DNA of 64,000 nt from the NCBI GenBank assembly GCA_030429175.1, contig JAUIDD010000004.1, forward strand, positions 26,349 through 90,348. The letters run 5' to 3'. Position numbers and translations under genes: made by a program. Each line of letters starts with the position of its first letter. Position 1 is the first letter of the stretch. The notes under the pieces are model-generated. The model was not told the origin of the DNA. It made no database searches and saw only the letters and a list, made by a program, of their open reading frames with translations. Origin of the DNA: Gammaproteobacteria bacterium. GTDB lineage: Bacteria; Pseudomonadota; Gammaproteobacteria; Coxiellales; Coxiellaceae. This document shows positions 37,058-47,259 of this stretch, one piece after another.

Positions 37058-37199
37058 ACTTATTATAGTGGGCAAAAAAAATAAAAATAGCAAGTTCTGA
37101 GTAACGATGAAACAGTATAATTATATTGATTACTTGATCACAAGGTATCTACTGATATATATTCACATGCTTACTCAAAATATATTATTAAGGATGCTT

Positions 37200-38717
37200 A
37201 TGAACTGCCTAAAACAACTCGACATCAAAGACCTTAACTCCGGTGCTTGCTCAGGCATTGATAAGTGGGCCGAGATAGGCACACAACAAATCAGCTCAAT
37301 TAATCCATCGACCGGGGAGACAATTGCAAAGGTAGCGACTGTTAACAAAACACAGCTAGATTTCAATATAGATACGGCCATGCAAGCGGCAAAAAAATGG
37401 CGTGATGTACCTGCACCACAACGTGGTGAAATTATTCGTCAAATAGGTATCGCCCTGCGTGAACATAAAGATGCGCTTGGCACATTAGTTTCTCTTGAAA
37501 TGGGTAAATCAAAGCAAGAAGGTGATGGCGAAGTACAGGAAATGATTGATATTGCAGATTTTGCTGTAGGGCAGTCACGCATGCTGTATGGAAAAACTAT
37601 GCATTCAGAACGCCCATTTCACCGTATGTATGAGCAGTGGCACCCATATGGTGTAGTTGGGGTGATTTCAGCATTTAACTTTCCTGTAGCCGTATGGGCC
37701 TGGAATGCTTTTATCGCAGCAATTTGTGGTAATGTCACAATTTGGAAACCATCTGAGAAAACACCCCTATGCGCAATAGCCGTTCAGAATATCTGCAATG
37801 CTGTCCTCAAATCAAATCAGTGCCCAGATATTTTTTCTTTTTTTCTACCACATGATCATACCCTTGTTGAAAACTTTGTGCGTGATCCACGGATACCTTT
37901 AATTTCTTTCACAGGCTCAACACAAACAGGAAAACATATTTCAAAAATAGTAGCAGGCCGTTTGGGCAATTCAATTTTAGAACTGGGCGGCAATAATGCT
38001 GTGATTATCGATGAGTCTGCAGACTTATCGTTAGCACTTCCTGCAGTTGTATTTGGCGCTGTCGGTACAGCAGGCCAACGCTGTACCTCAACACGTCGCG
38101 TTTTTATTCATCATTCAATATATAATACATTTCTTGCTTCTTTAAAAAATGCATATCAACAAATTACCGTTGGTGACCCACTTAATGAAAATAATCTGAT
38201 GGGGCCCTTGATCGATCAAGGATCAGTACAAAATTTTGTTAGCACAATTGAGCAAGCGGTAGCGAGTGGAGGTAAAATCGAATCTGGCGGTAGCGCACTC
38301 AAAGGTGATGGATTTTACGTTGAGCCAACGATCATTACCGGCCTTTCGAATGAGTCTGCACTCATTCAAAAAGAAACGTTTGCACCTATTTTGTATGTCA
38401 TGCCATTCGACACCATGGATGAAGTACTCACCATACATAATGATGTTAAACAGGGTTTATCATCAGCCTTATTTACGCAAAATTTAAAAAGTGCTGAGTT
38501 ATTTTTATCTGCAAAAGGTAGTGATTGCGGCATCGCTAATATTAATATTGGCACTTCAGGTGCTGAAATTGGTGGCGCATTTGGCGGCGAAAAAGAAACT
38601 GGTGGCGGACGTGAATCGGGCTCAGACGCCTGGAAAGCCTATATGCGTCGGCAAACCAACACCATAAATTGGAGTGATGATCTGCCATTAGCACAGGGCA
38701 TAAAATTTAATTTATAA
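37200..38717 (+). CDS. ALDH7/antiquitin-type aldehyde dehydrogenase (piperideine-6-carboxylate / alpha-aminoadipic semialdehyde dehydrogenase-like)
   Basis: Contains [87 protein letters not shown] and GQRCTSTRR. This closely matches my recollection of ALDH7A1/AmaB. The start choice of 37200 (AAGGA RBS) is uncertain, with alternatives at 37107, 37167 and 37194. Confidence 0.85.
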
Positions 38718-38731
38718 GCAAAAATTTTCGG

Positions 38732-44968: not shown

Positions 44969-46066
44969 ATGGACAAATACCCCGTAATGGCTCAAGTTAA
45001 GCAAAATGATACTGTTATTGATATCACACAAGAAAAAAATAAAAACATCAAAGTCAGATTATTATTAGCTGGAACTTGTTTTATAACATATTTTTCTGTC
45101 ACACAAATAGGTGGGGAAGGGATTGAAAAACTATTTAATTTATCTCATGATTCTTCCTTTGGCCCTATTTTAGCTGTTGGCGTATTAGCAAGTCTAACAG
45201 CTGGCGGGTTCTATTTTCGTGCATTAAATGGAATAAAGTTAAAACCACAGAAAGCTAATGAATATTATTTACTGCCATTTACACCATTTGCAGCAGCACC
45301 AATCTTTACTGGCGCTTACCTTGGTGCAAAAACCCTTGGGCTACCTAAATCATTGTGCATAATAAATGCCCTCATTTCTTTTATGATTAGATTTTCAGTC
45401 GTATGGGATGGCGCGATCAAGTGCCCTACAAAATTAAAAGACATGAAATGCAGCTTTAACAATGCATATATTAGTCGAAATATACCAAATCTCATACGCT
45501 TAACTGCAGCATGTCTGCTCACATTAGGGTATTCAGTGAGTCTTTCAGATGCAATCTATGAGGCAAGCGCTCTTATGCTTTCTTGGGCACATGTCTCTGA
45601 ATCAATTATCCTCCCTTTTGCTTATACGACAAGCGGACTTGGTATTGTTGGAACGATACCTTACATTTTATATTGGTTAAGCTTAGGACTCGATATGCTC
45701 ACTAATGGGAAAAACTTTAATGATTCCATCACTGACCGCTACACTTACATAGCCGCAGTTATGTCAATCCCAAGTATCATTGGCATTCTCGGTACTGCAA
45801 CATCAGCTTCTGGAGAAGTTTTTGCAAAACTCGGCCTAACAGCTGCAATTATTCGTTTTATTACATCTGTTAGCTATGGAATTGTAGTTAATACAATCGC
45901 GTTTTCAGGCGTCATACGAAAAGCTACTCAACGACACTACAATCCTGGCATTTTCTCGGCGCAGGGCTCGAGCACAAAAGTAGAATACGAACCTTTTCTT
46001 ATCAATGACCCTGAAAAAGATCCAGATGATGTAATACCTAACTCAAACTCTTATGGTACACTTTAA
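44969..46066 (+). CDS. polytopic membrane protein, hypothetical
   Basis: 365 aa with about 8-9 hydrophobic segments and a hydrophilic acidic C-terminal tail. No family recognised. Confidence 0.6.
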   Translation: MDKYPVMAQVKQNDTVIDITQEKNKNIKVRLLLAGTCFITYFSVTQIGGEGIEKLFNLSHDSSFGPILAVGVLASLTAGGFYFRALNGIKLKPQKANEYYLLPFTPFAAAPIFTGAYLGAKTLGLPKSLCIINALISFMIRFSVVWDGAIKCPTKLKDMKCSFNNAYISRNIPNLIRLTAACLLTLGYSVSLSDAIYEASALMLSWAHVSESIILPFAYTTSGLGIVGTIPYILYWLSLGLDMLTNGKNFNDSITDRYTYIAAVMSIPSIIGILGTATSASGEVFAKLGLTAAIIRFITSVSYGIVVNTIAFSGVIRKATQRHYNPGIFSAQGSSTKVEYEPFLINDPEKDPDDVIPNSNSYGTL

Positions 46067-46101
46067 TAAGTTTTCGAAAGGAAAAATTCATCAAAAACTT
46101 A

Positions 46102-47259
46102 TCAAGATACTGCCACTAAATCAACAACAGCAGACGTCTCAGTATTTGAGGGTCTGGAAGTAGACTCCCTAAAATAACGTGCAAAGCGGTTAGGTAGAAA
46201 ATCTTTGGTAAAATCTATTTGTTCTTGTCGTACAATTTTTCCTGGTATTGTTTTCTTTTGCATAACGAGATCTATAGAAACACACAAGCTACAGGCAGTA
46301 GTCATTTGGATAGCCGTCCATTGATGACCTAACATGGCCATGGGATAAAAGTAATGAGCATAATTTTTTTCAATCATTTTACCATCTATTAAACCCTCAA
46401 CAGATACATAGATTAACACCACATCGTTAGAGGTTTGAGGTACGACTTTTTTTAGATTATGTATTAACGCTTCCTGATCATCACAGAACTTAAGATCTTG
46501 AAGCAAAAATTTCATTTTATTACAATGGCCAGGATACCGAATCGTTTTATAATTCATCTCACGAACTTTTCCAGCATAAGTCGTTACCAAAGAGCCCAAA
46601 CCACCCGAAGTATTAAAAGCTTCATAGGATGCACCATTTATTTTGATTGTTTCTAAATCATCTAGTGCAGGTATCATAACGCAATCGTAATCCACAACGG
46701 CAGGACAAGGGTTTACATATTCATTGATCACACCTTCTATTGACCAGGTAAATGCATATCCAAGTGAGTTACTGATATTTGCTGGCAATGCACCAACACG
46801 CATTTTTACCTTTGAAAGTTCATCAAATTCCTGCATGATACTATGAGCAATAATACTGATTATCCCAGGCGCCAACCCACACTGCTGCACAAAAACGCCT
46901 TTCTCAGAATTTTCAGCGAGTTGATAAATGGCTTCTGTTGATGCCACATCTTCGGTTAAGTCAAAGTAATATAAACCTGCAAGACTAGCAATTTTAGCGA
47001 CATTGAGCGTTAAGTTATGTGGCAAACAAGATACAATACCCTTAATTTTAATTTGTTTAACTTTTTCAACAAAGTGATCTTGGTTAAATACATTGCCTAG
47101 AAAAAACTCTATTGGATTTTGTGGGATAATAGGGATATTTTTTGGCTTTTGCTTATCACTTAAATAGACTCTATAATCTTGAGAGTCTGCAAGCAAGGAG
47201 GCTACCAACATACCAATTTGGCCTGCACCAATAATTAAAATATTTTCTTTTTGCGACAA
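46102..47259 (-). CDS. saccharopine dehydrogenase-family NAD(P) oxidoreductase (lysine dehydrogenase / saccharopine reductase-like)
   Basis: A TTG start is supported by an AAGGAG RBS 8 nt upstream. The Rossmann fold is ILIIGAGQIGMLVA, with GLAPGIISI and RYPGH segments typical of the Sacchrp_dh family. Confidence 0.7.
   Translation of the reverse strand: MSQKENILIIGAGQIGMLVASLLADSQDYRVYLSDKQKPKNIPIIPQNPIEFFLGNVFNQDHFVEKVKQIKIKGIVSCLPHNLTLNVAKIASLAGLYYFDLTEDVASTEAIYQLAENSEKGVFVQQCGLAPGIISIIAHSIMQEFDELSKVKMRVGALPANISNSLGYAFTWSIEGVINEYVNPCPAVVDYDCVMIPALDDLETIKINGASYEAFNTSGGLGSLVTTYAGKVREMNYKTIRYPGHCNKMKFLLQDLKFCDDQEALIHNLKKVVPQTSNDVVLIYVSVEGLIDGKMIEKNYAHYFYPMAMLGHQWTAIQMTTACSLCVSIDLVMQKKTIPGKIVRQEQIDFTKDFLPNRFARYFRESTSRPSNTETSAVVDLVAVS

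Follow-up and report, generated by a model that had tools for sequence, protein, structure and literature searches.

The window analysed here, a stretch of 64,000 nucleotides from a gammaproteobacterium of the Coxiellaceae (assembly GCA_030429175.1, contig JAUIDD010000004.1), contains an island of biosynthetic genes in which two genes of lysine metabolism are found, one for an ALDH7-type dehydrogenase and the other for an L-lysine 6-dehydrogenase-like (LysDH-like) enzyme. Together, they probably form a route from lysine to alpha-aminoadipate that serves the surrounding island, in which an enzyme composed of adenylation, thiolation and alpha-oxoamine synthase domains (A-T-AOS) is the presumed consumer. 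Window coordinates are used throughout, and L001 denotes the locus of a Coxiellaceae metagenome-assembled genome (MAG) that, of the A-T-AOS loci found in other genomes, is closest to this one. Both enzymes named in the original prediction are encoded intact; they and A-T-AOS lie where it had placed them, with scores well above chance. Seven genes lie in the region 37107-47259:

37200..38717, + strand: ALDH7-type L-piperideine-6-carboxylate (P6C)/alpha-aminoadipic semialdehyde (AASA) dehydrogenase (NF050084; PDB ALDH7A1 and Pcd; Legionella homologues at 67-71% identity)
38732..39628, - strand: stand-alone type II thioesterase (TEII) (Pfam Thioesterase, 2e-16; 62% identical copy in L001)
39664..40449, - strand: short-chain dehydrogenase/reductase (SDR), overlapping the end of the A-T-AOS gene (Pfam adh_short_C2, 9.6e-65)
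40427..43534, - strand: A-T-AOS enzyme of 1035 aa, presumed consumer of alpha-aminoadipate (AMP-binding, PP-binding, Aminotran_1_2)
43531..44736, - strand: 433-aa protein without a family, translationally coupled to A-T-AOS; the open reading frame (ORF) opens at 44832, with 44736 as the likely start, and relatives begin at about residue 33
44969..46066, + strand: 365-aa protein without a family, convergent with the LysDH-like gene (no significant Pfam match)
46102..47259, - strand: L-lysine 6-dehydrogenase-like member of the saccharopine dehydrogenase family, 385 aa (Pfam Sacchrp_dh_NADP and Sacchrp_dh_C; 3ABI best in PDB)

The ALDH7-type dehydrogenase

The ORF at 37107-38717 (+) encodes 536 aa, or 505 aa if it is read from 37200. 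The latter is probably the real start, because only 13 bp lie between 37107 and the divergent transporter gene of the major facilitator superfamily (MFS) and because the Legionella homologues are 505-506 aa long; it leaves a divergent intergenic region of 106 bp.

The product matches Pfam Aldedh at 4.4e-135 and the NCBIfam model NF050084, "L-piperidine-6-carboxylate dehydrogenase", with 758.4 bits against a curated cut-off of 730, over model positions 2-475 of 475, the next family scoring 298.6. In the PDB, the best matches are the aldehyde dehydrogenase 10fm (5.8e-209), human ALDH7A1 (about 1e-163) and Pcd of Streptomyces (6rtr, 5.8e-153), and the best structure outside ALDH7 follows at 6e-65. 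By the curated equivalog cut-off, the product is assigned as an ALDH7-type P6C/AASA dehydrogenase, and the antiquitin-type enzyme that the original prediction had read at 37200-38717 agrees with both the model score and the ALDH7A1 and Pcd structures.

Among the best 120 homologues, the closest named ones all belong to Legionella or Tatlockia, at 67-71% identity, and two further homologues reach 83% and 76%. Since these include clusters of L. pneumophila found on 1000 or more contigs, ALDH7 is a common gene in the Legionellales; the uncultured bacterium of the window is placed by these identities among the relatives of Legionella outside that genus.

The saccharopine dehydrogenase family enzyme

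The product of 46102-47259 carries the Pfam domains Sacchrp_dh_NADP (9e-7, residues 7-118) and Sacchrp_dh_C (4.7e-23, residues 128-353), which confirms the family proposed for it beforehand, and it has the two-domain architecture of about 360-390 aa of the saccharopine dehydrogenase type. No NCBIfam model matches it. Residues 8-15 read IIGAGQIG, an N-terminal GxGxxG dinucleotide motif of the kind that marks a Rossmann fold.

In a single-sequence search of the PDB, 3ABI is the best match (7.6e-20), followed by yeast saccharopine dehydrogenase 2axq (1.6e-3), saccharopine reductase (7.4e-3) and carboxyspermidine dehydrogenase (CASDH; 8deb, 0.62). A family profile built from 29 members matches 3ABI at 8.1e-33 over positions 2-289 of 366 and the N-terminal fragment 3ic5, which we take to come from Ruegeria pomeroyi, at 5.4e-22. 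With the same profile, the saccharopine dehydrogenase domain of human AASS is found at 7e-10, saccharopine reductase at 1e-7, CASDH at 4.7e-5 (N-terminal part only) and BioU (Slr0355) at about 1e-3. The AlphaFold model (pLDDT 91.0, pTM 0.90) again finds 3ABI first in a fold search, with an E value of 1.9e-26, TM scores of 0.76/0.84 and an rmsd of 3.1 Å over 353 columns; behind it come saccharopine dehydrogenase and CASDH entries with target-normalised TM scores of 0.62-0.70, and BioU at about 0.5. According to the available part of one report, 3ABI is the L-lysine 6-dehydrogenase of Pyrococcus horikoshii, and a His-Glu-Glu triad is central to CASDH (PMC10413350).

Two other identities were considered for this protein. 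That of a carboxy(nor)spermidine dehydrogenase is rejected, given that no HEE, the triad of the CASDH active site, occurs in the sequence and that 8deb is matched at 0.62 with the single sequence and at 4.7e-5 with the profile; a clustering with these enzymes, which the original prediction had named as the outcome that would speak against it, was thus not found. For a saccharopine dehydrogenase or reductase, only about 190 N-terminal positions match (7e-10 to 5.6e-7), and the target-normalised TM score is 0.62-0.63 against 0.84 for the lysine dehydrogenase. Sequence, profile and predicted fold all point to L-lysine 6-dehydrogenase as the nearest solved relative, and not to the saccharopine or carboxyspermidine dehydrogenases.

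In a midpoint-rooted maximum-likelihood tree of 27 hand-chosen family members, the protein groups with two others that are 79% and 69% identical to it, and this group is nested in a gammaproteobacterial clade of 21 rows (support 98/98), outside of which the L. adelaidensis and Aquicella proteins are placed. Set beside an ALDH7 protein that is most like those of Legionella, this weakly hints at different histories of the two genes.

Pairing of the two families in other genomes

Homologues of the two proteins were sought in PLSDB with tblastn, which returned 82 records for the LysDH-like protein and 248 for ALDH7 (E 1e-100 or better). Fourteen records were common to the matches listed, which comprised 60 of the 248 ALDH7 records and, for the LysDH-like protein, the 25 best and a spread of 60 of the 82. 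The two homologues lie no more than 6 kb apart in 12 of these 14 records, and in the other two they are separated by 15.7 kb and by about 1.6 Mb.

Direct, co-directional adjacency is seen in three records, those of Legionella adelaidensis, Ruegeria sp. THAF33 (with a 3-bp gap) and Ruegeria sp. AD91A; in both Ruegeria species, the gene upstream of ALDH7 encodes a protein 39-40% identical to the LysDH-like protein of the window. The order in L. adelaidensis is lnt, LysDH-like (43% identity), ALDH7 (71%), fadB-like and thiolase, and on the Agrobacterium plasmid pRiA4b the pair is 4.4 kb apart. ALDH7 is also found without the partner, for example in 132 Ralstonia records, Ralstonia not being among the ten organisms named for the LysDH-like matches.

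In excerpts of a study of R. pomeroyi, SPO0234 is listed as lysine dehydrogenase and the gene next to it, SPO0235, as AASA dehydrogenase; several genes of both lysine pathways of this bacterium are reported there as experimentally verified, and the lysine dehydrogenase route yields the osmolyte aminoadipate (PMC4334477). Lysine 6-dehydrogenase is also described as a bacterial route to aminoadipate in section 2.2.2 of a review (PMC9854754). Because the homologues are adjacent or within 6 kb of each other in 12 of the 14 replicons listed, the two enzymes are likely to act as a pair that converts lysine via AASA/P6C to alpha-aminoadipate. This conversion had been put forward in the original prediction, and it gains support from the coupling as well as from SPO0234/SPO0235.

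The A-T-AOS enzyme and its neighbours

The best NCBIfam match of A-T-AOS is the Lys2 model TIGR03443, whose cut-off of 1030.1 bits is not reached by the score of 408.6 because the reductase part is absent; A-T-AOS has no C-terminal reductase domain of the Lys2 type, and Aminotran_1_2 (7.1e-39) is found there instead. The full architecture is rare, occurring in the query and 10 other proteins among 1051 matches, the closest of which are 70% and 59% identical to the query. Beyond this family, the largest group of named matches is that of the fungal Lys2 proteins (31-39% identity over about 46-66% of the query), and some bacterial synthetases with condensation, adenylation and thiolation domains (C-A-T) score equal to or above them.

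The substrate pocket was compared in an alignment of 11 A-T-AOS proteins, 10 fungal Lys2 proteins, 8 bacterial C-A-T synthetases and the second adenylating enzyme of the island, a single-module synthetase with adenylation, thiolation and thioesterase domains (A-T-TE), the rows being hand-chosen from 120 listed matches. Ten pocket positions, in GrsA numbering, were anchored by the A4, A5 and A10 motifs. A-T-AOS reads D P R C F V L R A K and all 10 fungal Lys2 proteins D P R H/N F V M R A K, so that 8 of 10 positions are identical; D, P, R, R, A and K are kept in all 11 A-T-AOS proteins. The pocket of A-T-TE, D L Y N A G G I W K, is unrelated to the Lys2 type. The A domain of A-T-AOS therefore carries an aminoadipate-type Lys2 pocket, in keeping with the Lys2-like A domain noted earlier in this protein, and its likeness to Lys2 appears to lie solely in substrate activation. 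As a separate observation, D P R N F V L R A K occurs in 3 of the 8 aligned bacterial C-A-T pockets, and D P R .. R A K in 6 of them.

LgrA was considered as the nearest relative of the A domain and rejected. Its top PDB score of 335 bits sums two A domains, with 114 and 154 bits over the core, and for this reason it is not counted against the Lys2 assignment.

The AOS part matches serine palmitoyltransferase (SPT; 2.6e-58) and KBL (2.7e-51) in the PDB, and BioF structures match as well. It passes no equivalog cut-off, with 280.8 bits against 426 for bioF, 275 against 640 for SPT and 267 against 460 for KBL, and the first of these values excludes A-T-AOS as a BioF equivalog. The domain is a member of the SPT/KBL/BioF family of fold-type I enzymes dependent on pyridoxal phosphate (PLP) and has a conserved lysine: K888, presumably the PLP lysine, is invariant in all 11 A-T-AOS proteins, as is S609.

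The 433-aa protein encoded upstream of A-T-AOS has no match in Pfam (E up to 5), NCBIfam, PDB sequences or the ESM Atlas. Its 556 remote relatives are about 440 aa long, and all 15 of those tested lack a Pfam domain; a 63% identical copy is present in L001. Its model has a pLDDT of 89.9, and a fold search gives TM scores of 0.27 or less, with no more than a weak likeness to cNMP-binding beta-barrel domains.

A-T-AOS loci in other genomes

A scan of the genomes of 185,579 species gave 80 loci, whose neighbours were compared within 10 kb by tblastn. Eight of these loci have a full-length A-T-AOS: one in a Coxiellaceae MAG (L001), one in Reyranella, five in Nocardia and one in Dactylosporangium. 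An SDR homologue accompanies A-T-AOS at all eight. L001 further shares the methyltransferase, the MFS transporter, PanB (74% identity), A-T-TE (60%), TEII and the 433-aa protein, which makes seven shared island genes with the SDR. The core of the system consists of A-T-AOS and the SDR, to which the Coxiellaceae-like lineage adds A-T-TE, TEII, the 433-aa protein, PanB, the methyltransferase and the MFS transporter. The lysine genes, by comparison, were added or co-opted in a lineage-specific manner.

At the other 72 loci (L002-L080), many of them from Acidobacteriota, Chloroflexota and other MAGs, it is the A-T part that matches A-T-AOS, and no ALDH7 or LysDH-like neighbours are present. In L001, the A-T-AOS ORF has 847 aa and the match begins at query residue 157, with about 156 residues missing from the start of the A domain, so this copy may be truncated or misassembled. 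The L001 cluster lies at a different genomic site from that of the window, and genes for ankyrin-repeat, U-box, YcaO-like and HipA proteins and an IS200-type transposase precede A-T-AOS there (L001 1-10174).

The inserted island

In addition to the seven genes listed above, the following features make up the island and its borders:

29429..49174: whole inserted island, 19.7 kb, from proC to yggS (yggS-proC-yggT are contiguous in Legionella adelaidensis)
28053-29428, - strand: island-flanking genes proC (28607-29428) and yggT (28053-28619)
29511..30470, - strand: class I S-adenosylmethionine-dependent methyltransferase at the island edge on the proC side (Pfam methyltransferase domains; 61% identical copy in L001)
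31141..32016, + strand: PanB-type ketopantoate hydroxymethyltransferase beside the A-T-TE gene (Pfam Pantoate_transf, 5.8e-107)
31999..34659, - strand: A-T-TE single-module synthetase, second adenylating enzyme of the island (Pfam AMP-binding, PP-binding, Thioesterase; TIGR01733, 361 bits against a cut-off of 317)
34867..35694, + strand: 275-aa island protein (borderline Mito_carr, E 1.1e-4, 22.4 bits against a cut-off of 22.3)
35696..37093, - strand: DHA2-type MFS efflux transporter, transcribed divergently to the ALDH7 gene (TIGR00711, score 240.7 bits, cut-off 230.2; copy in L001 at 42% identity)
47472..49001, - strand: MATE efflux transporter, in the same orientation as the LysDH-like gene and upstream of it (Pfam MatE, TIGR00797)
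49175-49825, - strand: island-flanking gene yggS

In L. adelaidensis, yggS, proC and yggT are contiguous with overlapping ends, and since the operon is unbroken there, 29,429-49,174 is taken to be an insertion that splits yggS from proC-yggT and holds both lysine genes. The yggS-proC-yggT operon is also known from other bacteria (PMC6396713). No tRNAs that could be an insertion scar are found in the window, and no repeat pair is found at the island edges. Base composition was considered as a sign of foreign origin and is not decisive, as the GC3 values of the island genes (0.23-0.34) and the flanks (0.26-0.45) overlap. The island separates proC and yggT from the upstream yggS, and the two genes would have to be transcribed from a new promoter. 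The window comes from the neighbourhood of the replication origin and includes dnaA-dnaN-recF-gyrB (53.4-60.5 kb).

Within the island, the TE domain of A-T-TE and the TEII gene share 73-74% nucleotide identity over stretches of 132 nt (32410-32541 and 39158-39289) and 58 nt (32755-32812 and 39500-39557), and they are apparently paralogues that arose by duplication there. The PanB gene adjoins A-T-TE both in the window and in L001 (15282-16265), where no other pantothenate gene is nearby in either case, and PanB may be a member of the pathway rather than an enzyme of vitamin synthesis. The 275-aa Mito_carr-like protein (34867-35694) has no copy in L001; eukaryote-like carrier proteins occur in Legionella. 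For the 365-aa protein (44969-46066), no tblastn match is found in the 80 A-T-AOS-related loci, L001 included, and its sequence suggests a membrane protein.

Elsewhere in the window, positions 10520-15078 (+) hold, in this order, genes for another AMP-binding enzyme of 493 aa, a 462-aa protein without a Pfam match, a 159-aa ORF and an acyltransferase. They may form a small operon for lipid or acyl modification that has no relation to the island. Two further large ORFs have no Pfam match, one of 913 aa at 60629-63370 (+) and one of 440 aa at 1329-2651 (-), near gyrB and uvrD.

The proposed lysine-derived supply of aminoadipate and its alternatives

Family assignments, pocket identity, gene coupling in other genomes and position in the island together support the reading that the two genes supply the island with alpha-aminoadipate made from lysine, a reading that is held with somewhat better than even confidence. 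We infer the supply role from position and chemistry alone, and the substrates, the order of the steps and the product are all predictions. The LysDH-like enzyme would oxidatively deaminate the epsilon-amino group of L-lysine with NAD(P)+ to give AASA, in equilibrium with P6C, and ALDH7 would oxidise AASA to L-alpha-aminoadipate; family membership and gene pairing support these two steps. Lys2 activates aminoadipate at the delta-carboxyl group, and the Lys2-type A domain of A-T-AOS would likewise adenylate aminoadipate, presumably at this position, and load it as a thioester on the carrier serine (S609), a step supported by the pocket.

For the next two steps, the argument is that of domain family and conserved neighbourhood. 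The PLP-dependent AOS domain may carry out a decarboxylative Claisen condensation of the thioester with an amino acid, which would yield a 2,7-diamino-6-oxo acid, an alpha-aminoketone, and the SDR could then reduce the ketone, or the cyclic imine formed with the 2-amino group. A-T-TE, TEII, the 433-aa protein, the methyltransferase and PanB would act further on, and the MFS and MATE transporters would export the product.

Several observations weigh against the supply role. In the window, 7.4 kb separate the LysDH-like and ALDH7 genes, which stand on opposite strands and on either side of the synthetase operon, and both lie outside the run of overlapping or closely spaced genes for the 433-aa protein, A-T-AOS, SDR and TEII. 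The assignment of the lysine dehydrogenase rests on the archaeal 3ABI, with which the protein shares only 22-23% identity. The original prediction had looked to a co-occurrence of the pair with A-T-AOS genes in other genomes, and this was not borne out: at the eight other loci with a full-length A-T-AOS, neither ALDH7 nor a LysDH-like gene occurs within 10 kb, the nearest of these loci, L001 (sequence to 22,622), included, and the sole match over all 80 loci is a generic aldehyde dehydrogenase of 29% identity in L078. In a weak test, the lengths of the longest contigs listed for the best 120 homologues of either enzyme were compared with those of the contigs bearing the 10 A-T-AOS homologues, and no match was seen. 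Finally, ALDH7 is widespread in Legionella and the L. adelaidensis pair stands in a catabolic-looking operon, so that a housekeeping role is possible.

Such a role, in which lysine catabolism or osmolyte production is merely located in the island, with no dedicated link to the synthetases and with host-derived lysine converted to aminoadipate for energy or stress protection, is considered unlikely. It would fit the spread of ALDH7 across named Legionella species and the many L. pneumophila contigs, the fadB-like and thiolase genes that follow the pair in L. adelaidensis, the osmolyte route in the R. pomeroyi excerpts and the absence of the pair at 8 of 8 other A-T-AOS loci. However, both genes lie within the block that splits yggS-proC-yggT, unlike in the Legionella setting, and the ancestral adjacency of the pair is broken, with the synthetase operon in between. 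The downstream catabolic genes are also absent, no fadB-like, thiolase or lnt homologue being present in the window, and an aminoadipate-type pocket encoded next to the pair would be an unlikely coincidence.

A pipecolate branch, in which P6C made by the LysDH-like enzyme is reduced by the pyrroline-5-carboxylate (P5C) reductase encoded by proC (28607-29428) at the island edge to L-pipecolate as a building block, for example for A-T-TE, while ALDH7 clears excess AASA, is improbable. The proC gene abuts the island, the pocket of A-T-TE has no assigned specificity, and a P5C reductase can turn P6C into pipecolate (PMC7253579); L-pipecolic acid has also been made in recombinant C. glutamicum, in a paper that mentions lysDH 28 times and pomeroyi four times (PMC6397837). 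Against this, the position of proC, a member of the conserved yggS-proC-yggT operon, is ancestral and not the result of recruitment, the Lys2-type pocket points to an open-chain diacid, and ALDH7 diverts flux from P6C.

It is very improbable that the enzymes tailor an intermediate rather than supply a precursor, the saccharopine dehydrogenase family member acting on its amine or ketone and ALDH7 on the resulting aldehyde, after the model of BioU on the BioF product 8-amino-7-oxononanoate (KAPA): BioU is among the distant matches (profile about 1e-3, fold TM about 0.5) and the AOS domain should make a KAPA-like aminoketone, but the similarity to lysine dehydrogenase is far stronger (8.1e-33), the 39-43% identical orthologues lie beside ALDH7 genes in genomes without an AOS gene nearby, and ALDH7 passes the P6C dehydrogenase equivalog model.

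The supply of aminoadipate from lysine is therefore preferred, and it matters since the precursors supplied from within an orphan cluster are a dependable guide to its product. Three independent lines, the LysDH-like enzyme, the P6C dehydrogenase and the Lys2-type pocket, converge on alpha-aminoadipate, and the rare A-T-AOS architecture is therefore directly testable with one substrate. If this reading is wrong, the pair is ordinary lysine catabolism. A wider proposal is put forward more tentatively, as one that may well fail: the A-T-AOS and SDR cassette might be an uncharacterised biosynthetic enzyme family that joins aminoadipate, through its delta-carboxyl group, to a second amino acid by decarboxylative Claisen condensation and reduces the resulting compound to a 2,7-diamino-6-hydroxy acid or a 6-substituted pipecolate scaffold. 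It would act in a self-sufficient island in yggS-proC-yggT together with the lysine pair, A-T-TE, PanB, the methyltransferase, the 433-aa family and two exporters. If true, the outcome would be an exported small molecule of a new structural class, and the nearest A-T-AOS locus lies beside eukaryote-like U-box and ankyrin genes.

Comparison with known systems

One of the closest precedents is the cephamycin C cluster of Streptomyces clavuligerus, in which, as described in part of a review, the in-cluster genes lat and pcd supply a carrier-protein-dependent synthetase with alpha-aminoadipate from lysine-derived AASA/P6C (PMC9854754). A P6C dehydrogenase lies within the biosynthetic cluster in both cases, Pcd being among the best structural matches of the ALDH7 protein of the window. 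The first step differs: it is catalysed by a PLP-dependent lysine 6-aminotransferase in cephamycin synthesis and would be catalysed by an NAD(P)-dependent LysDH-like enzyme here; no class III aminotransferase is found in the island. The consumer differs as well, ACV synthetase in the one and A-T-AOS in the other.

The SPO0234/SPO0235 genes of R. pomeroyi, as far as the excerpts describe them, and the pair of L. adelaidensis represent the same two enzyme families and the same conversion of lysine via AASA to aminoadipate, with homologues 39-43% (LysDH-like) and 55-71% (ALDH7) identical to the window proteins. In Ruegeria and L. adelaidensis, the two genes adjoin each other in the same orientation, in a setting of catabolism or osmolyte production, whereas those of the window are separated, on opposite strands and in an inserted block.

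Fungal Lys2 resembles A-T-AOS in its pocket (D, P, R, F, V, R, A and K being identical) and in the NCBIfam model that matches best. The reductase at the end of Lys2 releases a semialdehyde that goes into the synthesis of lysine, whereas A-T-AOS ends in an AOS domain, and because an alpha-oxoamine synthase domain replaces the reductase, A-T-AOS should form a C-C bond. The A-CP-PLP(AOS) architecture has been catalogued for bacterial proteins, with substrates marked as unknown and neither substrate nor product assigned; the relevant passages of that survey describe the same architecture and do not mention a Lys2-type pocket, an SDR partner or a lysine-derived supply (Milano et al. 2013, PMC3870968).

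The logic of joining an activated acid and an amino acid to an aminoketone by an AOS enzyme is shared with BioW/BioF and the BioWF fusion, as the available part of one paper presents them (PMC9544090). These use CoA activation, in contrast to the carrier-domain activation and the predicted amino-diacid of the island. An AOS step followed by a reductase, as predicted for A-T-AOS and the SDR, has its counterpart in serine palmitoyltransferase and 3-ketosphinganine reductase. In sphingolipid synthesis, a short-chain reductase acts on the ketone after the AOS step.

A literature search, for which most subscription journals were outside the coverage, gave no description, among the papers listed, of a link of oxoamine synthase, adenylation and aminoadipate; two of these papers, on Legionella secondary metabolism, mention neither aminoadipate nor oxoamine. 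If the supply of aminoadipate from lysine holds true, this would be, to our knowledge, the first case in which a lysine dehydrogenase rather than an aminotransferase feeds aminoadipate to a carrier-protein enzyme, and the first known entry of aminoadipate into an oxoamine synthase reaction. The two enzymes, their pathway and the in-cluster supply of aminoadipate by lat and pcd are already known. What is new in comparison is the predicted use of a dehydrogenase instead of an aminotransferase for the first step, the presumed A-T-AOS consumer with its Lys2-type pocket and the insertion of the island into a housekeeping operon of an uncultured Legionellales-like bacterium.

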